A stretch of DNA of 17,684 bases, taken from NCBI GenBank assembly GCA_033551855.1, contig JAWSUI010000070.1:1-17684 (forward strand), read 5' to 3'. This DNA comes from Deferrisomatales bacterium. GTDB lineage: Bacteria > Desulfobacterota > Deferrisomatia > Deferrisomatales > JACRMM01. Position numbers and translations under genes: made by a program. Under the pieces are notes generated by a model that saw only the letters and a list, made by a program, of their open reading frames with translations, was not told where the DNA came from and did not search any database. Numbering within the stretch: the first letter of the stretch is position 1; every line of letters begins with the position of its first letter. This document shows positions 2,311-17,684 of this stretch, piece by piece.

Positions 2311-3852
<1,542 letters not shown>

Positions 3853-4156
3853 CGCAAGCCTCCTTGGGGAAAAACGGTTCTTCCGGTAAACGACCGGGGG
3901 TGGGCCCGCCCACTCGGCGGCCGACGCCGGACGCCCTCAGGGCCTGTCCGGGAATAACGGATGCAAAGGCGGGGGCCGAGCCGCCCGGCCGACAAGGCGC
4001 GAGGAGGGCGCATCCCCGTTGCGGTACGTAACCGACGAGCAACGCAGTCGGGCGGCATGGATCGGCCCTCGCACTGCGATCGTTATTTCTGGACAGGCCC
4101 TCATATCTGCGAGCCCCCGGGTCCCCCGGAATGCCCGAAGGGACCACGGGTCCCGA

Positions 4157-4302
4157 CGGTTCCCTCCCCTTCAAGGGGAGGGCAAGGGTGGGGATGGGTT
4201 GTCAAACTCGCCTTCGAATTCAGGTAGGTGCAGGACCGACCCCACCCTCACCCCAGCCCTCTCCCTGAGGGAGAGGGGGCTCTTGGGGCTGAGCTGCTCC
4301 TC
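4157..4302 (-). repeat. ~145-bp REP-doublet element, copy B (inverted relative to copy A)
   Basis: Reverse complement matches 1037-1176 except four substitutions, one 1-nt indel and a 7 vs 12 nt central patch. An extra partial unit CCCCTTGAAGGGGAGGG lies at 4323-4339. Confidence 0.9.
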
Positions 4303-4388
4303 GAGGTTGGCGCCCATACCCCCCCCTTGAAGGGGAGGGCAAAGCGGTGCGGGTGCCGCCCATGCAGAGCGCTGCGCGGCCAAGAATT

Positions 4389-4402
4389 CGACAAAAGTGT
4401 AG
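4389..4402. promoter_or_regulatory. Candidate activator-binding palindrome CGACA-N4-TGTAG upstream of glnA
   Basis: Imperfect AT-rich dyad (CGACAAAAGTGTAG) about 150 bp upstream of the glnA ATG, in the region shared with a divergent enhancer-binding-protein gene. Function is inferred. Confidence 0.35.
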
Positions 4403-4549
4403 ACCTTCGCGGCTTTGGGGACAATCACGAAGCCCACGCGCCCCGGCGAGGCAGGCGGCCCTGTCCGATTCGGCCCTTTCCAGGGCGGGCGGGGATTGCT
4501 ATCTTCGGCGCCGGGTTTCCCTGTCCCGTCCGCGTCCAAAGGAGGCACC

Positions 4550-5962
4550 ATGACCCCCAAGGAAGTGCTGGAGTTCGCCAAGGAGAACGAGTGCCGGTTC
4601 ATCGACCTCAAGTTTCAGGACTTCCTGGGGCTGTGGATGCACTACTCCCGCCCGATCCAGGAGCTGGACGAGGCGACCTTCGAGAACGGCTACGGCTTCG
4701 ACGGCTCGAGCATCCGGGGATGGCAGCCGATCCACGCCTCGGACATGCTGGTCGTCCCGGACCCCGACACCGCGCGGATCGACCCCTTCCCCCGGGAGCG
4801 CACCCTCCACCTCATCGGGAACATCTTCGACCCCATCACCCGCGAGCCCTACTCCCGCGACCCCCGCCACATCGCCCAGAAGGCAGAGGCCTACCTGAAG
4901 AGCACGGGGGTGGGGGACACCGCCTACTTCGGGCCCGAGGCCGAGTTCTTCATCTTCGACGACGTGCGCTTCGACCAGACCCGCAACAGCGCCTTCTACC
5001 TGGTGGACTCGGAAGAGGGGCGCTGGAACACCGGCCGCGACGAGCAGCCGAACCTCGGGTACAAGCCCCGGTACAAGGAGGGTTACTTCCCCGTTCCCCC
5101 CACCGACAGCCTCAACGACCTGCGCAACGAGATGGTGCTCGAGCTCATGCGGGTGGGCGTCCACGTGGAGCTCCAGCACCACGAGGTGGCTACCGCCGGC
5201 CAGGGGGAGATCGACATCCGCTACGCGCCCCTCGTGGAGCAGGGCGACAACCTGCAGTGGTTCAAGTACATCCTCAAGAACGTGGCCCGGCGCAACGGCA
5301 AGACCCTCACCTTCATGCCCAAGCCCCTGTTCGAGGACAACGGGTCGGGCATGCACGTGCACCAGTCCATCTGGAAGGGCGGCACCAACGTCTTCGCCGG
5401 GGACCGGTACGGGGGGCTCTCCCAGGAGGCCCTCTGGTACGTCGGCGGCATCCTGCGCCACGCCCCGGCCCTGTGCGCCTTCTGCAACCCCTCCACCAAC
5501 TCCTACAAGCGGCTCGTCCCCGGGTACGAAGCCCCGGTGAACCTGGCCTACTCCAGCCGGAACCGCTCGGCGGCGGTGCGCATCCCGATGTACTCCACGA
5601 ACCCCAAGGCCAAGCGCGTGGAGTTCCGCACCCCCGACCCGAGCTGCAACGGGTACCTCGCGTTCGCCGCCATGCTCCTGGCCGGCCTGGACGGCATCGA
5701 GAACCGCATCGACCCCGGTGAGCCCTTGGACAAGGACATCTACGGGCTCTCCCCGGAGGAGCTCCGGGACGTGCCCTCCACCCCCGGCAGCCTCGCCGAC
5801 GCCCTCAAGGCCCTCGCGGCGGACCACGAGTTCCTCCTGAAGGGCGACGTGTTCACCGAGGACGTGGTGGAGATGTGGATCGAGTGGAAGAAGAAGAACG
5901 AGGTCGACGCCGTGAACATGCGCCCCGTGCCCTGGGAGTTCGCCCTGTACTTCGACTGCTGA
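4550..5962 (+). CDS. glnA: Type I glutamine synthetase (470 aa)
   Basis: [69 protein letters not shown] and EFRTPDP motifs. Adenylylation-loop Tyr in DKDIYGL. AAAGGAGG immediately precedes ATG 4550, so the ORF-track start at 4415 is an over-extension. Confidence 0.98.
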
Positions 5963-8060: not shown

Positions 8061-11000
8061 GTGAAGCGACCCTACGGAACCCGGCTCCCCCGGCGCCCCC
8101 TGCCGCACCTCCTCGCCTCGGTACTGGCCCTTGCCCTCGCCTTGGTCCTCACGAGGGGGGCCGCGGCCGCCTGGGAGGAGGTCGTCGTCTTTGGCCCCGA
8201 GCGGTTCGACCGAGACGTCGGGGCGCCCCGGACCGAGGCGCGGGACTTTGCGGTGCCCTCCCAGGGGCAGGCCTTTCTCCTGCGGGTCCAGAACGGCTCC
8301 CTGGACCAGGGGGACCTGGTTTCCAGCGCCGTCGTCGGGCTCAACGGGGTGACGGTGTTCCAGCAGAACGACTTCCGCCGGAACGCGCAGCACCTGGAGA
8401 GCCCGGTGCACCTCGGGGACCTCAATCGGCTCGAAGTGTGGCTCGCGAGCATGCCGAGCTCCCACCTCACGGTCACGGTGCTCGCCTACTACGACCCCGA
8501 GGACCTGGACCGGGACGGCGACGGCTTCAGCCCGCGCCAGGGCGACTGCGACGACACCCGCCCCGACGTCTTCCCCGGCGCAGAGGAGGTGTGCGACGGC
8601 CGCGACAACGACTGCGACGGGATCGCCGACAACGGTTGCCTGGCGGACCTCACCGTGAGCCCCTCCTCCATCCGGTTCACGGGCAGGGGGGAGGCCCGGC
8701 AGCTCACCGTCACCGGGCACTACGTGGCGGCGGGCACGGCGGACCTCACGGCCTCCAGCGAGGGCACGTTCTACGGCACCAGCGCCCCGGCGGTCGCGGG
8801 GGTGAGCCCGGAGGGCCTGGTCACGTCGGAGGATCACGGGGAGGCCGTGGTCCACGTGTCCCACGGGGGGTTCTCCGCGGAAGTCGGCGTCACCGTCTTC
8901 CTCGACGAGGACGGCGACGGGGTGCCCGACCGGGACGACCGGTGCCCCGGCACCGCGGCCGGGGACCCCGTGGACCCCTGGGGGTGCGCCGACGCCCAGC
9001 TCGACGACGACGGCGACGGGGTTTCGAACGCCCAGGACCTCTGCCCCGGCACGCCCCCCGGCCAGGCAGTGGACGACACGGGCTGCCCGCTCGCCCCGCG
9101 GGAGCCCCTGCCGGAAGGAACCTTCGGCAAGGTCTACGAGGATCTGATCCCCGAAGACGCGACCATCGGGGCATACGACCCCAAGCGCTTCTCCCTGGTC
9201 ACGGGCCTCGTGCAGGACCGGGTTGGGGAACCCCTCGCAGGGGTGAAGGTCGCGGTGCACGGCTCGCCCCAGTACGGCTCCGCGCTCACGGACGCCGACG
9301 GGCGGTTCCACCTGCCGATGGACGGCGGAGCGACCTTCACGCTGAGCTACGAGAAGGCGGGTCTCCTGACGGCCCACCGCCAGGTGCAGGTGCCCTGGAA
9401 CGGGGTGGCGGTGGCGGAGACCCTGGCGATGCTCCCGGCCGACCCGGCCGCGACCGCCGTGGCGTTCACCGGGAACCCCGCCGACGTCGTGACTCACCGG
9501 GGCACCCCCGTGACCGACGACTTCGGCACCAGGTCCGCCACCCTCGTGCTCACCGGCGACAACCGGGCGTGGGGGCGGGACGCCGCGGGCAACGAAGTGG
9601 AGCTCCACGAGGTCACGGTGCGGGCCACCGAGTACGACACCCCGGAGTCCATGCCCGCGAAGCTGCCCCCCAACACGGCCTACACCTACTGCGCCGAGCT
9701 CGCCGTGGACGAGGCGGTAAGTGTGCGGTTCGAGAAGCCAGTGGTGGTGTATGTTGACAACTTCCTCGGCTTCGACGTCGGCGAGATCGTGCCCGCCGGG
9801 TACTACGACCGGGAACGGGCGGTGTGGGTGCCCTCCGAGAACGGGGTCGTCGTTCGCCTGCTCGACCGCAACGGCGACGGCGTCGTGGACGCCCTCGACG
9901 CTACGGGCAACGGCCTCCCGGACGACCTGGACGGCAGCGGGTCGTTTGCGGACGAAGTCCGGGGCCTGGGGGACGCGGCTCTCTACGCGGCGGGGAAGAC
10001 CTACTGGCGGGTCGAGGTCACCCACTTCACGCCCTGGGATTTCAACTGGCCCTACGGCCCGCCGCCCGGTGCCATCGCCCCCAACCCGCCGGCCCCCCCC
10101 ACCGCACACCCCTCGCTCGCGGTGCCGCTGCCCGGGCAGACCACGCCGTGCACGGTGAACAACTCGTACACCACTCCCTTGGACGGAACCTTCCACGAAG
10201 ACATCCCCATCCCCGGCACGGGCATGGCCCTGCACTACGCGAGCAGCCGGGTTCCCGGCCGGAAGACCCGGATTACCGTCCCGGCGAGCGGGGCGTCCTT
10301 GCCGGGCAGTCTCAGGGAGATTCTGGTGCACTTGGAGGTTGCCGGACGCCGCTTCCAATCGGCCCTCCCTGCTGCCCCCAACCAGAAGGCGGAGTTCGCG
10401 TGGGACGGGTTCGACGTCCTAGGCAGATCGGTACGGGGCGTGGCGATGGGAAAGGTGAGCATCGGCTTCGTATACGAGGCCGTATACTACACCGCCGGTG
10501 AAGACTTTGCTCAGGCCTTCGGGCAAGTTGGGAGCAGAGTCACGGGCATCCGGGCCCGTCAGGAGCTGACCGTATGGAAGGTCGCCGTCCTTCCGGTGAG
10601 GACCTCCTACCTGGGTACCGGAACCCTCGCCGAAGGCTGGACGCTGACACCCCACCATCAGAGTGTCCCTTGGAGCCAAGGCCTCTTCAAGGGCGACGGG
10701 TCCTTGGCTAGGGGAGTTGGAGGGCAGGTCATCCACACGGTGGCCGGTACGGGTGAATACGGGTACAGCGGGGACGGAGCTGCCGCGATCGACGCGAAAC
10801 TGAGCTCCCCGCAAGGGTGCGCCGTTGATCAAGCAGGGAACCTCTATTTCGCAGACATTGGTAATCACCGGATCCGTAAACTGGCCGTGGACGGGACCAT
10901 CACCACGGTGGCCGGGGGTGACCGCCCGGGCTTCCAGGGTGATGGCGACATGGCCACCCAGTCCCTTCTGCGTTTCCCCACGAGTGTGGCCGTGGACGCG

Positions 11001-14000
11001 GCAGGCAATCTGTACATCGCAGATTCCGGCAACAACAGGGTGCGAAAAGTGGGGAAGGATGGGGTCATCGCGACCGTCGCAGGAACCGGGGTGAGGGGCT
11101 ATAACGGGGACGGGATCCAGGCCAAAGAGGCTGATCTTACCTACCCTCAAGACGTAGCGGTTGACGACGCAGGAAACCTGTACATAGTGCAAAATCAAGA
11201 GCATAGAATTAGAAAAGTGGACCCGAGTGGAATCATAACTACTGTGGCTGGTACAGGGCAGTCTGGGTACAATGGAGATGGCATTCAGGCTATTTCCGCT
11301 AGGCTGAATTTGCCAGGATATGTTGTGATAGATACTGATGGGAACATCATTATAGCGGATACGTTCAATCACAGGATTCGACGGGTAGGCATTGACGGCG
11401 TGATTGCCACCATTGCCGGGACAGGGTCGGCGGGCTACGACAGCGATGAGGTTCCTGCCGGTCTGGCTAGGCTGAACCATCCTTTCAGTATTGCCCTCGA
11501 CGAGAATGGGAATCTCTACATTGCCGATTTCGAGAATGCTCGGATCAGGAAGGTTGGCACAGACGGTATCATTTCTACTGTCGCTGGGATTGGGCGTGGC
11601 GGATACGGAGGCGACGGTGATTTCGCCGTTGCAGGAGAACTGAATGGGCCCCGGGGAATTGCTTTAGATTCAGATGGAAATATCTATATATCCGATTCCA
11701 TAAACAGCCGCATTAGAAGAGTGAGTCCAGAGACCCAGTTCGACATGTTGTCAGGCTATCCTGGACACAGAGTCTATGCAACCGACGGAGTCGCTCATGT
11801 GATGGGCCTGGAAGGCGAGCATCGGCTTTCTTTGGACTTCGTAACCGGTACGCCGGTCCAAAGCTTCGACTACGACGAATCTGGCCAACTCACCACAGTC
11901 ACCGACAAGGACGGGAACACAACAATCATCGAGCGCGGCCCGGACGGCGTGCCTACCGCGATCGTCTCACCGGACGGCCTGGTCACCTCGTTGGGCATCG
12001 ATGGGAGTCGCCACCTGAGGGAAGTGGTCTATCCCGACGGCTCCGGTTACCGGTTCGCGTACACGGCCGACGGCCGGATGACGGACGTGTGGGATCCGAA
12101 CGGGAATCACTTCACCCACGGGTTCGACGACGACGGAGCCCTCACGGAGGTGACCGACCCCGAAGGCGGCCGGTGGAGCTACGGGCACGGGGTGGACGCG
12201 GCCGGAACGATCCACACCCAGGAGGAGACGGGGGAGGGCAATGTCACCTCCTTCCGCGAGCGCACCGACTTCGGAGGCACCTACTCCCGGCTCACCACCT
12301 CGCCCTTCGGTGCGGAGACCGCGCACACCAGGGCAGGGGACGGCCGAAGCGTCTCGGAGGACACCGCCTGCGGCACCCGGGTCGAGCTCGCTTACGGGCT
12401 GGACCCCCACTACTGGCACACGGTCCTTCAGGGAACGACCACCGTGCTGCCCAGCGGGCTCGATCGAACGGTCTCCGTGGACCGCACCTACCAGGACACG
12501 GACGCCGACGGCGTTCCCGACCGAGTGACCGAGACGGTGCGCGTCAATGGGATGCCGTGGACGACGGTGAACGATGCGCGAAGCGGCACGGTCACCTCGA
12601 CCTCGCCCCAGGGTCGCACCGCGACGGCGGTCTACGATCCGGCGTCGCTGCGAGCCCTGCAGCTCTCGGTGCCGGGGTTGCTGCCGGTCTCCTACGGCTA
12701 CGACGCCCGGGGCCGTGTGGAGACCGTGACGGTGGGAAGCCGGACGACCTCCCTCGCTTACGACGCCAACGGCTACCCTGCCGCCGCGGTGACGCCGGAT
12801 GGCCGGACCATCGACTACCGTTTCGACGTGATGGGGCGGCTGCGGGAAGAGGCGCGGCCGGACGGCGCCGTGCTCCAGTACGACTACGACCCCAACGGCA
12901 ACCTCACCGTGCTCACCACCCCCCGCCTCCACGTTCACCGGTTCGCCTACACGGCCAACGACCAGCGCCGGAGCTATCTCGCACCCCTGTCGGGCTCCTA
13001 CGTGTATTCCTACGACACCGAGCGGAACCTCCAGACGGTGCGATCGCCCTCCGGCAGGCTCCTCACGAACCGGTACGCCAACGGGCTGCTCCAGAGCACC
13101 CAGACCCCCGAGGGAACCGTCACCTACTCCCACGACTGCGGAGGCCGCATCTCGGGGGCGGCCCTGGGGGCGGAGAGCGTCTCCCTCACCTTCGACGGGC
13201 CGTTGCTCACTTCCGACACCCGGCACGGGACCCTCAGCCAGACCCTTTCCTACGGGTACGACCACGACTTTCGGCTCACGTCCCTCCACTATGCCGGCGA
13301 GACCGAGACCTTCGGCTACGACCTCGACGGCCTGCTCGTCTCGGCAGGGGAACTTTCCGTCCACCGCAGCGCCCAGAACGGCCTCCCCGAAGCCGTTACC
13401 GGCGGAGCGGCCGAGCTCACGCGCGCCTTCAACGGCTACGGCGAGCTCGACGAGACGGCGTATGTCGTCGCCGGTCGCCCGGTGTTTCAGTGGCAGGTCG
13501 GCGAGCGCGACCCCGCAGGCAGGATCACCCGGAAGGTCGAGACGATCGGGGGAGGGACAACGGTCTGGGAGTATCTCTACGACGAGGCGGGGCGGCTCAC
13601 CGAGGTCACGAAAGACGCCGTCCCGGTCGAAACCTATTCCCACGACCTCAACGGCAACCGCACGCTGGAGGCCAACACCCTGCGAGGCATCGAGGCCCGA
13701 GGCTACGCCTACGACGCCGAGGACCGTGTCGTCACGGCCGGCGCAGAGGTCTACGCCTTCGACGAGGACGGGTTCCTGGAGCGGAAGACGACCGAAGCGG
13801 GGACCACGATCTACACCTACTCCTCCCGCGGAGAGCTGCTTCGGGTCGATCTCCCGGACGGGCGGGTCCTCACCTACGACCACGACCCCTTCGGCCGAAG
13901 GGTCGCCAAGCGGGTGAACGGCCAGATCGTCGAGAAGTACCTCTGGGCCGGCGCCAACCGGGGGCTCCTCGCCGTGTACGACGGCAGCGACGGGCTGATC

Positions 14001-14807
14001 GCCCGGTTCCGTTACGCGGACGACCGGGTGCCGGTCACGGTGACGGTTGCCGGGCAGACCTACCTCCTCGCCGCCGACCAGCTCGGCACCGTGAGGGCCG
14101 TGGCCGACACCCAAGGCAACGTGGTCAAACGCATCGACTACGACACCTTCGGCAACGTCCTCTACGACTCCAACCCGACCTTTCCCCTGCCCCTCGGCTT
14201 CGCCGGCGGCCTCCACGACCGCGACGCCGGCCTGGTGCGCTTCGGCGCCCGGGACTACGATCCCGCCCTCGGCCGATGGGTCGCCAAGGACCCGATCGAC
14301 TTCGCCGGTGGCGACGTGGTTCTCTACGGGTACGTGGCCGGAGACCCGGTGAACTTCACGGATCCCGATGGGCTGTGGGTTCAGTACGCAGCCTCGGCCG
14401 TGGTGGGAGCAGCATCCGGGGCTCTCATGGTATCTTTAACAACTCCGAATGCACCCTTTAGCGTGTATTTAGCGGCGGCAGGACTTGGAGCGGTGAGCGG
14501 TTTGGGTGCAGTCCATTTAGGACCGGGTATATTCTTGCAGTCTATGATAGGAGCCGGAGTTGGAACCGCCGGCTATTCGGCCACAACGATCCTGTCTGGT
14601 CAAAAGCCGAATGCGGCTGGTATCTGTTTCGCTGCAACGGGTGGTGCAATAGGCGGTGCGTTCAGCGGTCTCCAATCACAGAACTTGGCTATTAGCTTGG
14701 CAAGCACCTGGATATCTGGTGTGCGGGGTGCTGCATTTGGATGGCTAGGCCACAATTTACAGCAACAGGTTTCAGCTCATCCTCGAAGTGCGACGATAAT
14801 CCCCTAA
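8061..14807 (+). CDS. Secreted teneurin-like Rhs/YD-repeat protein with NHL propeller and C-terminal putative toxin domain (2248 aa)
   Basis: Signal peptide (...LLASVLALALALVLTRGAAAA), MopE-related motif (DRDGDGF...GDCDD...PGAEEVCDGRDNDCDG), Ig-like segment, two TSP3-like repeats (DEDGDGVPDRDDRCPGT), carboxypeptidase-regulatory-like domain (VTGLVQDRVGEPLAGVKV...TDADGRF), six NHL repeats, many YD repeats and Rhs core (FAGGLHDRDAGLVRFGARDYDPALGRWVAKDP...YGYVAGDPVNFTDPDGL). GTG start after AAGGAAGG. Confidence 0.93.
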   Translation: MKRPYGTRLPRRPLPHLLASVLALALALVLTRGAAAAWEEVVVFGPERFDRDVGAPRTEARDFAVPSQGQAFLLRVQNGSLDQGDLVSSAVVGLNGVTVFQQNDFRRNAQHLESPVHLGDLNRLEVWLASMPSSHLTVTVLAYYDPEDLDRDGDGFSPRQGDCDDTRPDVFPGAEEVCDGRDNDCDGIADNGCLADLTVSPSSIRFTGRGEARQLTVTGHYVAAGTADLTASSEGTFYGTSAPAVAGVSPEGLVTSEDHGEAVVHVSHGGFSAEVGVTVFLDEDGDGVPDRDDRCPGTAAGDPVDPWGCADAQLDDDGDGVSNAQDLCPGTPPGQAVDDTGCPLAPREPLPEGTFGKVYEDLIPEDATIGAYDPKRFSLVTGLVQDRVGEPLAGVKVAVHGSPQYGSALTDADGRFHLPMDGGATFTLSYEKAGLLTAHRQVQVPWNGVAVAETLAMLPADPAATAVAFTGNPADVVTHRGTPVTDDFGTRSATLVLTGDNRAWGRDAAGNEVELHEVTVRATEYDTPESMPAKLPPNTAYTYCAELAVDEAVSVRFEKPVVVYVDNFLGFDVGEIVPAGYYDRERAVWVPSENGVVVRLLDRNGDGVVDALDATGNGLPDDLDGSGSFADEVRGLGDAALYAAGKTYWRVEVTHFTPWDFNWPYGPPPGAIAPNPPAPPTAHPSLAVPLPGQTTPCTVNNSYTTPLDGTFHEDIPIPGTGMALHYASSRVPGRKTRITVPASGASLPGSLREILVHLEVAGRRFQSALPAAPNQKAEFAWDGFDVLGRSVRGVAMGKVSIGFVYEAVYYTAGEDFAQAFGQVGSRVTGIRARQELTVWKVAVLPVRTSYLGTGTLAEGWTLTPHHQSVPWSQGLFKGDGSLARGVGGQVIHTVAGTGEYGYSGDGAAAIDAKLSSPQGCAVDQAGNLYFADIGNHRIRKLAVDGTITTVAGGDRPGFQGDGDMATQSLLRFPTSVAVDAAGNLYIADSGNNRVRKVGKDGVIATVAGTGVRGYNGDGIQAKEADLTYPQDVAVDDAGNLYIVQNQEHRIRKVDPSGIITTVAGTGQSGYNGDGIQAISARLNLPGYVVIDTDGNIIIADTFNHRIRRVGIDGVIATIAGTGSAGYDSDEVPAGLARLNHPFSIALDENGNLYIADFENARIRKVGTDGIISTVAGIGRGGYGGDGDFAVAGELNGPRGIALDSDGNIYISDSINSRIRRVSPETQFDMLSGYPGHRVYATDGVAHVMGLEGEHRLSLDFVTGTPVQSFDYDESGQLTTVTDKDGNTTIIERGPDGVPTAIVSPDGLVTSLGIDGSRHLREVVYPDGSGYRFAYTADGRMTDVWDPNGNHFTHGFDDDGALTEVTDPEGGRWSYGHGVDAAGTIHTQEETGEGNVTSFRERTDFGGTYSRLTTSPFGAETAHTRAGDGRSVSEDTACGTRVELAYGLDPHYWHTVLQGTTTVLPSGLDRTVSVDRTYQDTDADGVPDRVTETVRVNGMPWTTVNDARSGTVTSTSPQGRTATAVYDPASLRALQLSVPGLLPVSYGYDARGRVETVTVGSRTTSLAYDANGYPAAAVTPDGRTIDYRFDVMGRLREEARPDGAVLQYDYDPNGNLTVLTTPRLHVHRFAYTANDQRRSYLAPLSGSYVYSYDTERNLQTVRSPSGRLLTNRYANGLLQSTQTPEGTVTYSHDCGGRISGAALGAESVSLTFDGPLLTSDTRHGTLSQTLSYGYDHDFRLTSLHYAGETETFGYDLDGLLVSAGELSVHRSAQNGLPEAVTGGAAELTRAFNGYGELDETAYVVAGRPVFQWQVGERDPAGRITRKVETIGGGTTVWEYLYDEAGRLTEVTKDAVPVETYSHDLNGNRTLEANTLRGIEARGYAYDAEDRVVTAGAEVYAFDEDGFLERKTTEAGTTIYTYSSRGELLRVDLPDGRVLTYDHDPFGRRVAKRVNGQIVEKYLWAGANRGLLAVYDGSDGLIARFRYADDRVPVTVTVAGQTYLLAADQLGTVRAVADTQGNVVKRIDYDTFGNVLYDSNPTFPLPLGFAGGLHDRDAGLVRFGARDYDPALGRWVAKDPIDFAGGDVVLYGYVAGDPVNFTDPDGLWVQYAASAVVGAASGALMVSLTTPNAPFSVYLAAAGLGAVSGLGAVHLGPGIFLQSMIGAGVGTAGYSATTILSGQKPNAAGICFAATGGAIGGAFSGLQSQNLAISLASTWISGVRGAAFGWLGHNLQQQVSAHPRSATIIP

Positions 14808-14850
14808 GGCAGTGCGGCTGGGGGAGTGCCTGCCATGTGAGGTGCCCTGA

Positions 14851-15141
14851 ATGAATTGTCTCGCCGTGCGACTGAAGTTCGGACTCCTACTTCTGTCAAT
14901 TATTGTGGGGGGATTGTTTTTGTTGGGAATTATTTCATATTTTTTTCTGGTACCATTAACGGATCTTGTCGTTTATTCATTGTTTGGTCACGATCAACAG
15001 GAGACGGATATTATACGGCTCGCAATTGGCTTTCTGTTTACCGTGCTTCCAGCATGTTTCTTGTTTTCTGTATTCCTTAACTCCAAGGCTGGCAAGAGAA
15101 TAACTTCAGCCATCCGATGCGGTGTTTTGCCCCGCCCTTGA
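14851..15141 (+). CDS. Putative immunity protein (96 aa, two predicted TM helices)
   Basis: Starts 43 bp after the Rhs stop with a GAGGTG RBS. Two long hydrophobic stretches. Low GC (22/60 in 14881-14940). Immunity role is inferred from position. Confidence 0.7.
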   Translation: MNCLAVRLKFGLLLLSIIVGGLFLLGIISYFFLVPLTDLVVYSLFGHDQQETDIIRLAIGFLFTVLPACFLFSVFLNSKAGKRITSAIRCGVLPRP

Positions 15142-15233: not shown

Positions 15234-15503
15234 ATGGTACCCAAGCGGCGGCGCCCCAAGCCCCCTGTGCTGTGAGCGGCCATGGCCACTTTCCGTTTCG
15301 GTGTTTCCGTCCTGACCAGCATGGTTTGTGTCAGGATCGGGTTCATCATCATCAACGACGGCGGGTTCGAGAGGGCCACCGGGGACTCGTATGATCTGGG
15401 AACAAGCGCCTTTGGCGTCGGTCTGTTGGTCTCCTTGTTGGGGGTGGCAGTCTTCGTGAACGCCGTTGTGCGCCAGTTCGGCACGAACCGAACCGCGAGG
15501 TGA
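15234..15503 (+). pseudogene. Small two-TM membrane protein ORF, possibly interrupted by an in-frame TGA (orphan-immunity-like relic)
   Basis: ATG 15234 reads MVPKRRRPKPPVL-TGA(15273)-AA, then continues in frame into the 73-aa hydrophobic ORF 15282-15503, whose own ATG has no obvious RBS. Confidence 0.35.
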
Positions 15504-16108
15504 GAAGCGGAAAACAGACGGTGAACGGCTGACATAGTAATGGCGTTGGAGGTCTTGTCCCTCTGCGTCCTCCGGTGCGCCAGGCCAAGCCTGGCCAATC
15601 TAGCTGACTGAAAGGTGTCAGCCATGCGAATTGCTCGTTCAGCATGTAGCCGCGACTCCCCGTGAAGGGTAACCGTAAGCGGGAAGCGCAGTCGGTCTCC
15701 GGCGCGGTCGAACCGGAGGCAAAGGGGAAAAACTCCCCGGACGGCAAAGACGCGAGCCCTAGTGATCGAACCCGATTCGGCCTCGTTACGCTTTCGGCAG
15801 TGGCCAGTCTCCCAGAGATGCTGAAGCCTGCCACCGGAAGGGAAGAAACGAGCAGATGCACCGACCGGACTGCCCGGGGTGGTTGGGGAGAGCGCGCGTC
15901 GAAAGATTGGTCGAGGAACCTGGGAGGCCCGGCGTGGCATCCGGGGCGGAGCATCGCCTCTCGGAAAACGCCAATGGGGAATCCATAACCCATCTGGCGG
16001 CCGCGGCCGGGAGTCAGTCGGCCCGTAGTAGCGAGGAAGCGGGGTAACGCCCGTGGAGCCAAGGGGCCGGACTTCAGTCATGTTTTCGTCAACGAGAGGA
16101 AGAGCCGC

Positions 16109-17455
16109 TTGAGCAGGCGCTCCACTACGGAAGAAGAGGCGCAAGGGTTCCAGCCGGAACCCGGGATGCCGCTGAAACTCTCCCTTCTGCGATGGAAACT
16201 GGGCCGCAAGGCCAAGCAAGAGCCGTCGTTTCGGTTTTACGCCCTGTATGACCGGTTGTACCGCCGCGACGTGCTGGAAACAGCATGGAAGCGGGTACGG
16301 GCGAACCAGGGGGCACCGGGAGTCGATGGAATACGCATCAAAGACATCGAGGCCAGGGAGGGAGGAGTGGGGGCGTTTCTGGATGAAGTGGAACAGGCGC
16401 TTCGCTCCAAGAGCTATGAGCCTCAGCCGGTGCTTCGCGTCTACATACCGAAGGCGAATGGAAAGTTGCGCCCCCTCGGTATACCTTGCATTCGGGACCG
16501 GGTGGTCGAGACGGCCTGGATGTTGATCGTGGAGCCGATCTTCGAGGTGGACTTCCTGGACTGTTCCCACGGGTTCCGGCCCGGGCGGCGAGCCCACGGA
16601 GCCATGGAGCAGATCCAGACAAACCTCAAAGAAGGGCGCTGCGAGATCTATGACGCAGACCTTTCGAGCTACTTCGACACCATCCCATGGGAGCCCCTGA
16701 TGGAGAAGGTGGGGCAGCGGATCGCGGACCGATCCATGCTGCACCTGCTGCGGATGTGGCTGCGAAGCCCGATCGTGGAGCAGGACGGCAAGGGAGGCGA
16801 AACCATCACGAAGCCCACGCGGGGGACCCCGCAGGGCGGCGTGATCTCGCCCCTTCTGGCCAACCTCTATCTTCACCAGTTGGACCAGGCGTTTTATGCA
16901 GAGGCACACGGACCGAACCGGGTGGCCAATGCGCGACTGGTGCGCTACGCAGACGACTTCGTGGTCCAGGCGCGATGGATGGGGCCTCGGGTCATCGGAT
17001 GGCTGGAAAAGAAGCTGGAAGGGGAGCTGGGATTGACCATCAACCGAGACAAGACGAGCATCGTGCGGATGCGGGGAGCAGGGCAGAGCCTGAACTTTCT
17101 GGGGTTCACCCTGCGCTACGACCGAGACTTGAAGGGAAGAGACCATCGGTACCTGAATATCTTCCCCTCGGAAAAGGCCGTGGCGAAGCTGCGGGACAAG
17201 ATCCGCGAGAAGACCCGTACAGGATATAAGAAGGCGCTTGGACCCGTCATCGTCGAGGTCAACGAGATCCTGCGAGGGTGGGCCAACTACTTCGGGTACG
17301 GCTACCCGCGAAAGGCGTTCCGAGGCGTCAACCACTTCGTGCGATGTCGGTTTCGGCGATTTCTGCGAAACCGGAGCCAACGGCGCAGCAAGCCCTTTCG
17401 GAAAGGCGAGACCCTGTATGCAGGACTGCACCGCTACGGCCTCGTCTATCTGTAG
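16109..17455 (+). CDS. ltrA: Group II intron reverse transcriptase/maturase lacking an endonuclease domain
   Basis: RT0 ([16 protein letters not shown]), [56 protein letters not shown] (16946), FLGF and domain X RGWANYF. No HNH C-terminus. TTG start after GAGAGGA. Confidence 0.97.
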
Positions 17456-17509
17456 GCACTGCAACGCCTTCAACTCCTTGCGTCTGCCTTGGGGCGAGAG
17501 ACTGTCGGT

Positions 17510-17542
17510 GCGCCGGATGCGGGAAAGCCGCACGTCCGGTGC
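17510..17542 (+). ncRNA. Group II intron catalytic domain V
   Basis: GCGCCGGATGCGGGAAAGCCGCACGTCCGGTGC: D5 hairpin with GAAA-containing loop, AC bulge and a CGC triad. Confidence 0.92.
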
Positions 17543-17684
17543 GACGAGGAGGAGCAGGCATGAACGGGCATGGAGACCCTAAACGGAAGTTCCTGAAAAA
17601 TTCGTTCCTGAATCGAGGCGAACCCCCTGACTCACTTTCCGCAGGGTGGATTGCGCCCGTGGCGGAATTTCCTGGGGCGACTCA

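Follow-up and report, generated by a model that had tools for sequence, protein, structure and literature searches.

A teneurin-like protein locus of a Deferrisomatales bacterium points to an exchangeable propeller slot, a ZU5/GAIN-like TIP domain and a tethered cargo

We analyzed the whole of contig JAWSUI010000070.1 (17,684 nt; hereafter the window) from the draft genome of a Deferrisomatales bacterium (GCA_033551855.1; 132 contigs, 100% complete). The open reading frame (ORF) at 8061-14807 almost certainly encodes a bacterial teneurin-like protein (TLP). [quoted passage not shown] The locus itself is an ordinary member of this family, and both the family and the picture drawn in a preliminary description of this DNA were already known. 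Its value lies in what it exposes about TLPs, namely three features that we did not find in the literature and that bear on the delivery and release question: a propeller slot that behaves as a cassette, the predicted fold and terminal motif of the TIP domain, and a probable family-wide disulfide tether. In the solved protein these come down to one Ser/Thr, two Cys, and one deletable domain. With modest confidence, we favor a model in which a Sec-exported, thrice self-cut TLP carries a disulfide-tethered membrane toxin, is aimed by its propeller, and is neutralized by a neighboring membrane protein. The parts of the system, with amino acid (aa) positions and G+C content at third codon positions (GC3) where relevant, are as follows.

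8061..14807, forward strand: TLP, 2248 aa (Pfam, match to the solved BiTLP)
8061..8171, forward strand: likely Sec/SPI signal peptide, aa 1-37, with a basic n-region, LLASVLALALALVL core, and AAA end (hydropathy heuristic)
8172..8498, forward strand: unnamed N-terminal domain, aa 38-146 (common to 26 homologues)
8499..9095, forward strand: MopE-type Cys/Asp repeat (147-193), Ig-like domain (194-280), and two Asp-rich Cys repeats (281-345) (Pfam, sequence motifs)
9162..9434, forward strand: TTR-like (carboxypeptidase-regulatory-like) domain (Pfam PF25020)
9435..10055, forward strand: TIP domain, aa 459-665, with a predicted ZU5/GAIN (MAIN-type) fold and a predicted self-cut site at H655-F656-T657 (nt 10023-10031) (model, motif)
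10029..10163, forward strand: 45-aa leader T657-N701 (4.7 kDa) with C697, equivalent to BiTLP C719 (alignment to BiTLP)
10164..10715, forward strand: FN-plug, first residue S702, equivalent to BiTLP S724 (Pfam, alignment to BiTLP)
10716..11735, forward strand: six-bladed NHL propeller (Pfam, model)
10419..11897, forward strand: low-GC block over the propeller, aa 787-1279, likely a recently exchanged cassette (GC3 0.61 versus 0.90)
11781..14375, forward strand: YD shell and Rhs core (Pfam, alignment to BiTLP)
14376..14807, forward strand: cargo, 143 aa, 13.9 kDa, with a single Cys, Cys2189 (composition, position downstream of the Rhs core)
14851..15141, forward strand: 96-aa two-helix membrane ORF, likely the cognate immunity gene (position as in PMC13018210, composition)

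The TLP ORF has a GTG start with the purine tract AAGGAAGG immediately upstream. Pfam profiles match, in order, Cu-binding_MopE (aa 162-190, E 8e-10, one copy), TTR_TEN1-4 (aa 373-457, E 1e-17), FN-plug_TEN1-4 (aa 745-807, E 6e-7), TEN_NHL (six stretches, E 1e-38), and TEN_YD-shell (aa 1241-2077, E 2e-54). The top solved relatives are the structures 9PT5 and 9IFO of the Bacillus TLP, BiTLP (E ~1e-292, residues 368-2105/2111), with animal teneurins next. An AlphaFold2 model of aa 351-1330 (predicted local distance difference test score, pLDDT, 87; predicted template modeling score, pTM, 0.54) contains six propeller repeats, and Foldseek ranks 9IFO first and 12 teneurin entries next for it, with a global TM score of 0.36 and unreliable domain packing. 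The preliminary description had proposed a teneurin superfold with six NHL blades and the order carboxypeptidase-regulatory-like domain, plug, YD shell, DPDG-L motif, and cargo, and these results agree with it.

The hallmarks of TLPs are present as well. TTR and TIP precede the plug, and the TIP profile matches BiTLP 482-695 (E 1e-71). The plug-loop Ser, S702 here, is conserved and invariant in one alignment of homologues; FHEDIPIPGTGMALHYASSR lies at aa 711 and DPDGL at aa 2101. The bipartite DPxG motif is accompanied by its conserved Arg, and R2064, D2077, D2101, and L2105 align gap-free to BiTLP R2103, D2116, D2140, and L2144. The set is completed by a hypervariable cargo of ~15 kDa, immediately followed by a small gene. 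The protein thus resembles BiTLP (9IFO, 9PT5) in its TTR-TIP-FN-plug-NHL-YD-cargo order, catalytic R/D/D residues, Ser cut site, loop Cys, ~14 kDa hydrophobic cargo, and small downstream gene, and likely in its signal peptide (by a heuristic here), and differs from it in carrying other N-terminal adhesins and an unrelated cargo. It differs from animal teneurins in that Pfam detects no type II transmembrane anchor, EGF repeats, or Tox-GHH, and in that its cleavage motif is intact whereas theirs is an uncleaved linker. This kind of protein is not new: PMC13018210 describes TLPs through structures and assays and covers the immunity genes, the Sec signals, and the variability of the N-terminal adhesins.

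The first of the three features concerns the propeller. Within the TLP gene, GC3 is 0.61 over aa 787-1279 and 0.90 in the remaining scaffold, and it sinks furthest toward the later blades of the propeller (0.72, then 0.50). At 0.29, this internal drop is the largest among 158 long ORFs of the genome retained by a codon-position filter (next 0.22; median 0.015). With the closest relative, P0004, the core, slot, and shell share 79/52/83% identity, and the cargoes are unrelated (0%). This locus thus likely records a recent propeller exchange, as judged by composition and alignment. We also considered an assembly chimera as the origin of the low-GC block, which is unlikely; both edges of the block lie within a single Logan contig (8604-13795), although this may derive from the source sample.

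To place the slot in the family, we surveyed 79 related loci (the best 80 of 239 matches), which held 58 ORFs spanning core and slot, or 57 after setting aside one that was 5′-truncated. Forty slots were NHL, 10 LamG-type (five of them paralogues in one genome), five tandem Lcl, and two of other kinds, so that 17 of the 57 relatives, from 13 genome records, have a non-NHL slot. Laminin_G_3 was above cut-off in all six LamG-type slots scanned (of 10), and Lcl_C matched twice in 5/5 others. The remaining two slots (L044:4524-5090 and L056:11549-12166; 189 and 206 aa) had no Pfam match. These NHL-less TLPs keep the HX(S/T) motif of TIP, the loop Cys, and, where complete, an odd number of cargo Cys. 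Separately, P0020 is listed with FN-plug and shell and with no NHL, and the slot of P0097 is merely 155 aa long.

Pairs of relatives make the replacement explicit. Core, slot, and shell identities are 82/0/92% between L034 (LamG) and L058 (NHL), 82/0/88% between L055 (LamG) and L053 (NHL-type), and 91/57/96% between L008 and L018, with sharp identity edges near aa 840-880 and 1240-1280. On a tree of the flanks without the slot, the starred branches force at least five changes of the LamG label (a quick tree of 48 rows that excludes L079, four of the Sulfurimonas paralogues, and any row whose shell is short). Of 54 genes, 37 have a lower fourfold-site GC in the slot than in either flank, and nine have a higher one (significant in 17 and 0, respectively). 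We conclude that the slot has very probably been exchanged by recombination. Two observations weigh against reading this too broadly. The slot is as conserved as its flanks in 37 of 75 close pairs and at least 15 points lower in 32, the pairs not being independent. Moreover, when homologues are ranked by the Rhs core, the NHL family is listed for 118 of the closest 119, so that replacement of the fold is concentrated in few clades.

The superfold was called invariant in PMC13018210 because the search there demanded all three domains, including NHL. A literature search found no paper describing NHL-less TLPs; such members correct the view of an invariant superfold and widen the family.

Exchange of this kind suggests a role in targeting. 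NHL determines binding specificity in animal teneurins (PMC6425310, PMC5851990), and in CdiA a central variable region that sets receptor specificity is swapped independently of the C-terminal toxin (PMC5371414). CdiA differs in being a filamentous two-partner-secretion protein, and Pfam matched no FHA or two-partner-secretion domain in the TLP. From this precedent, teneurin NHL specificity, and modular exchange with lectin-type folds, we find it fairly likely that the slot sets the target cell. The slot could instead vary for reasons other than aiming, such as producer or matrix anchoring, self-adhesion, or escape from phages or predators by in-place divergence. Laminin-G domains on polymorphic toxins have been proposed as anchors to the producer (PMC3482391), NHL-to-NHL identities near 60% could reflect fast drift, and at least five copies in one Sulfurimonas genome share one slot and carry different cargoes. 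Fold replacement between scaffolds that are 82-92% identical, with sharp edges, needs recombination, however; variable adhesins are already supplied by the N terminus, and teneurin NHL determines binding specificity. We therefore consider this alternative unlikely and retain targeting as the function of the slot. The Sulfurimonas copies (L046, L048-L051) are 96-100% identical in core, LamG slot, and shell; some are in tandem, and transposase-like genes surround them.

The second feature is the link between the plug loop and the cargo. In BiTLP, a C719-C2216 disulfide was presented as a surprise in a single protein (PMC13018210). C719 and S724 align to C697 and S702 here; the BiTLP cargo has three Cys. 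An odd Cys count was found in all 39 complete cargoes of the related loci and in 111 of 119 cargoes of an independent pull, 92 of which have exactly one. After removal of duplicates and of cargoes shorter than 50 aa, the count is odd in 147 of 153 TLP cargoes and in 94 of 95 homology clusters. The corresponding numbers are 44 of 74 and 37 of 63 for same-phylum Rhs cargoes that lack a match to TIP/plug (Fisher p 2e-11 versus TLPs). A Cys occurs in 135 of 135 parsed plug loops (29 of 164 were unparsed), whereas 125-residue shell windows gave the same in 16.5% of draws. Because odd cargo counts are nearly universal and every parsed loop has a Cys, the disulfide is quite likely family-wide. The review file of PMC13018210 mentions a map under reducing conditions without density before S724 and for the cargo, for which other causes are possible.

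Several counts weigh against this generalization. Exactly one Cys is found in 25 of 63 non-TLP Rhs clusters and none in four (L134-L188); other Rhs groups may share the tether, or the contrast may be smaller than it appears. Eight of the 119 cargoes have an even count, including four with zero Cys (two of those truncated or mis-parsed), and parity fails in 3 of 17 orphan or split cassettes and in one of four TLPs of the control pull. Since 60 of the 135 plug loops hold two or three Cys, the disulfide partner is not fixed by sequence, and the TLP here has further Cys at 544 and 920. The word "disulfide" is absent from the searchable supplements of PMC13018210, and we found no paper generalizing the bond.

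The third feature is TIP, which is unresolved in the BiTLP maps and occurs in 96% of TLPs (PMC13018210). A TIP model from 56 sequences (pLDDT 85, pTM 0.83) was closest in VIA to ankyrin ZU5 domains (Z 9.8/9.7/9.7; root-mean-square deviation, rmsd, 3.1-3.7; 132-144 residues aligned), the best match having Z 9.8 and rmsd 3.7 over 144 residues. The GAIN domain of CD97 followed (Z 8.6/8.2), and all five rows with Z of at least 8 were ZU5 or GAIN. Below Z 8, GPR126 (7.8), BAI3 (7.2), GPR110 (7.2), and the CARD8 FIIND (7.1) were mixed with axonemal proteins. Counting against this assignment, the top four Foldseek matches, again ankyrin ZU5, have weak E-values of about 0.1 each; the fold-comparison tool warns that Z 7-8 is common; and sequence searches did not detect ZU5 in TIP, with no Pfam ZU5 match in the 56 members. 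The model nonetheless makes a ZU5/GAIN fold very likely.

All 166 TLPs compared carry H-[F/L/M]-[S/T] at the end of TIP (HFT 116, HFS 46, HLT 3, HMT 1). In the model, a strand (189-198) precedes T199 and another (200-206) follows, and BiTLP has S686 at the position of T657. HX(S/T) is the motif cut in GAIN, Nup98, and FIIND (PMC9539791) and likewise in bacterial MAIN domains (bioRxiv 10.64898/2026.05.12.724683). Given fold and motif, TIP may well cut itself in vivo, which we hold somewhat more probable than the reverse. TIP resembles MAIN domains and the ZU5 autopeptidases of Rhs toxins in its predicted beta-sandwich, its HX(S/T) before the final strand, and its place in a secreted adhesin-bearing protein. 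It differs from MAIN domains, which mostly lie beside a C-terminal envelope anchor, in being located at aa 459-665 of 2248, before the payload, and from Zhang's ZU5 toxins, which are mostly SpvB/TcdB-type (PMC3482391).

Alternatively, only the two published cuts occur; the ZU5-like TIP would then serve as a spacer or for binding, without cutting, and the cargo would stay linked to the entire N-terminal fragment. The closest fold matches are ankyrin ZU5 domains, which are not known to cleave themselves. Purified BiTLP shows an N-terminal band of ~45 kDa, and two cuts were reported. The matching N-terminal stretch here would be ~31 kDa if cut at HFT and 35 kDa if uncut; because the ~45 kDa band is closer to the uncut size, the BiTLP preparation looks uncut at the motif. 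The invariably Ser or Thr third position, interchanged as expected for a nucleophile, argues against a two-cut protein, and cleavage of this type is sometimes incomplete, reaching about 50% in NLRP1. We thus regard the two-cut version as rather unlikely and keep the third cut in the favored model.

PMC13018210 and its searchable supplements do not mention ZU5, GAIN, or FIIND and give TIP no fold, and "teneurin," "NHL," and "disulfide" are absent from the text of the MAIN preprint (tables outside the search). ZU5 or MAIN domains on RHS toxins have been noted in general terms (PMC3482391; bioRxiv 10.64898/2026.05.12.724683). We found no paper tying TIP to ZU5/GAIN, although Zhang Figure 2B and the preprint tables, which lay outside the search, may include TLPs.

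A further finding complicates the general scheme: a Hint domain replaces the Ser site in three homologues, with a different Cys geometry. The plug loops of L042 (10880-11400; PT-HINT E 2e-26), P0016, and P0091 contain a pretoxin Hint domain, which runs from the loop Cys to HN-x-C, and the conserved Ser is absent. In these proteins the N-terminal cut seems to have passed to an intein-like domain. The literature search returned nothing on Hint inside a TLP plug loop.

The cargo is Gly/Ala-rich, hydrophobic (grand average of hydropathy 0.65), and free of acidic residues, with GC3 0.45. The 96-aa ORF begins 43 nt past the TLP stop codon (GC 0.43, GC3 0.44) and encodes two hydrophobic segments, in line with the small low-GC membrane gene noted in the preliminary description. 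A downstream ORF is present in 38 of 39 complete relatives. Membrane ORFs with at least two helices follow hydrophobic cargoes in 9 of 11 cases and other cargoes in 9 of 27 (p 0.011). In PMC13018210, the BiTLP cargo permeabilizes E. coli only with a signal peptide, and three of nine selected TLP cargoes inhibited E. coli. Tse5, an Rhs pore-former of type VI secretion, and Tc B/C shells are likewise YD cages with a cleaved, encapsulated cargo, and Tse5 delivers a pore-forming fragment to membranes (PMC10684867); they differ in that no PAAR, VgrG, TssC, or SpvB was found in the TLP genome. We consider it probable that the cargo is an antibacterial membrane toxin with its cognate immunity encoded by the downstream ORF, a membrane-permeabilizing toxin and a membrane immunity protein being most likely by analogy with BiTLP and Tse5. 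Homology searches weigh against this assignment. No homologue of the cargo emerged from proteins of 252-2000 aa, and among 1.84 billion representatives it matches just itself and one other, weakly. Atlas matches for the cargo and the 96-aa ORF were unnamed or weak.

Two alternatives bear on the cargo. In one, this copy is an adhesin or signaling protein with a harmless cargo, followed by unrelated low-GC DNA. This would agree with the lack of a homologue or enzyme motif for cargo and ORF and with inhibition by merely three of nine selected cargoes. It is improbable given the intact catalytic residues, the similar GC3 of cargo and ORF (0.45/0.44), the family-wide association of hydrophobic cargoes with membrane ORFs, and the orphan core-plus-cargo cassettes downstream in relatives. 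Orphan core-plus-cargo cassettes are a usual reservoir of polymorphic toxins. We observed Rhs-core-plus-cargo cassettes downstream of the TLP genes in L008, L013, L016, L024, L031, and L071 and none in this window. The other alternative has the toxin act on a eukaryote, be it a grazer or a host cell, in place of a bacterium. The alternative slots are lectin-type folds, and AB toxins have a similarly reducible tether. We consider this very improbable because nearly all complete relatives (38 of 39) have an ORF downstream, an arrangement typical of antibacterial systems with immunity genes, and tested TLP cargoes act on E. coli (PMC13018210). An antibacterial toxin with its immunity gene therefore remains our preferred assignment.

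The preliminary description pictured a stand-alone toxin capsule exported by Sec. The stand-alone part held. PAAR (PF05488), TssC/VipB (PF05943), and VgrG (TIGR01646) had no matches in the draft genome, where positive controls matched, and SpvB (PF03534) was not found, TcA itself not having been searched; this agrees with the claim that no type VI secretion or Tc partner accompanies the gene. Sec export is likely, as 68 of 77 full-length homologues have a signal-like N terminus by a crude hydropathy heuristic; inspection of aa 1-37 showed no lipobox. A dedicated export partner was sought among 591 neighbor ORFs of the 79 loci. Fourteen clusters occur in at least three loci and none in more than nine, which also fits the expectation that homologues are not tied to type VI or Tc loci. 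Eight were scanned (histidine kinase, IS200 transposase, Rrf2, ABC ATPase, HemC fusion, Sel1, integrase, and one unmatched); the other six are confined to one Sulfurimonas genome, and singletons lay outside the scan. GspD and GspK are present on one contig, and the protein might conceivably cross the outer membrane by this type II secretion system.

The N terminus was incompletely covered in the preliminary description, which overlooked the domain at 38-146, TIP at 459-665, and the low-GC block over the propeller. The ~110-aa domain after the signal peptide, which has no Pfam match, is a candidate secretion-targeting or display domain. The proposed MopE repeat stood, as one Pfam copy. The proposed TSP3-like repeats had no Pfam TSP match, and DxDxDG motifs and sub-cut-off TraB/MtsC matches were seen there; the Ig-like domain matches the BIG domains of BiTLP weakly (independent E-values 1.2-8.6). 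The Cys/Asp repeats may bind Ca. Because the MopE and TSP3-like stretches match five and four of ~180 homologues searched, they appear to be one of many N-terminal decorations, and the parallel drawn with the EGF repeats of animal teneurins is merely positional. One contig of run X1 lacks 24 nt at 8517 in the Asp-rich repeat, a possible in-frame repeat-number variant.

The favored model would run as follows. Sec would export the protein into an oxidizing compartment, from which it might cross the outer membrane by GspD/GspK. The Rhs core would cut after L2105 and the plug loop before S702, as shown for BiTLP, whose key residues are conserved here, and C697 would pair with C2189, again as shown for BiTLP and, judging by Cys parity, probably throughout the family. 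TIP is predicted to cut between HF and T657, yet its strand would stay docked, which is how GAIN and MAIN domains behave. The only link between the N-terminal adhesins and the capsule would then be the leader (T657-N701), a segment cut at both ends, held in TIP by a single strand, and bonded to the cargo. The propeller slot may bind a receptor on a neighboring cell. More speculatively, the trigger would be tension or a conformational change that undocks the strand or tugs on the leader; this would free a leader-cargo unit whose cargo would insert into the target membrane. We regard force as a possible trigger, short of a probable one; no outer-membrane anchor is evident in the TLP, which weighs against it.

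More tentative still is the view of TLPs as contact-triggered capsules of three independent modules: an exchangeable slot (NHL, LamG, Lcl) for recognition, a GAIN-like force-released TIP latch, and, as ripcord, a doubly cut leader with a disulfide bond to whichever cargo is present. The findings touch on teneurin origins because TIP, absent in most animals, survives in choanoflagellate (Monosiga) and amphioxus (Branchiostoma) teneurins. If the view were true, the bacterial teneurin ancestor would have had its own GAIN-fold mechanosensor, a fold also found in the animal partner latrophilin, and the neuronal partner-specifying propeller would descend from a bacterial target-selection cassette.

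A profile scan of the contig placed rubrerythrin-like, NifA-type activator, glnA, and DUF711 genes before the TLP locus; DUF711 is followed by the 2248-aa ORF, the 96-aa ORF, and a group II intron. The locus is accessory, with a match in 3 of 60 relatives searched. Neither same-genus genome (95% and 86% complete) matches it, and in four relatives DNA similarity ends at the DUF711 stop codon. A profile search of the contigs found a single TLP and a single Rhs core in the genome, and thus no paralogues with the same shell and another C terminus, which the preliminary description had proposed to look for.

15575..17636, forward strand: group II intron with a reverse transcriptase/maturase (16109-17455), outside the toxin system (Pfam/Rfam)

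The intron starts with GTGCG, and Rfam places domain V/VI at 17508-17636. Its read depth in run X1 is 226 versus 26, and short matches lie at the ends of six other contigs, which suggests a collapsed multicopy element. Between the immunity candidate and the intron, a 73-aa ORF (15282-15503) with two hydrophobic segments, GC3 0.79, and no Pfam match is possibly an orphan immunity remnant; variant contigs in run X1 cover it. Copies of an intergenic repeat family with a CCCCTTGAAGGGGAGG core, some direct and some inverted, lie to either side of the nifA-type gene (880-1171 and 4156-4342), and the family also occurs elsewhere in the genome. The GAF-sigma54 activator itself scores above the NifA cut-off and is divergent from glnA (2311-5962), a synteny kept in one same-genus genome.

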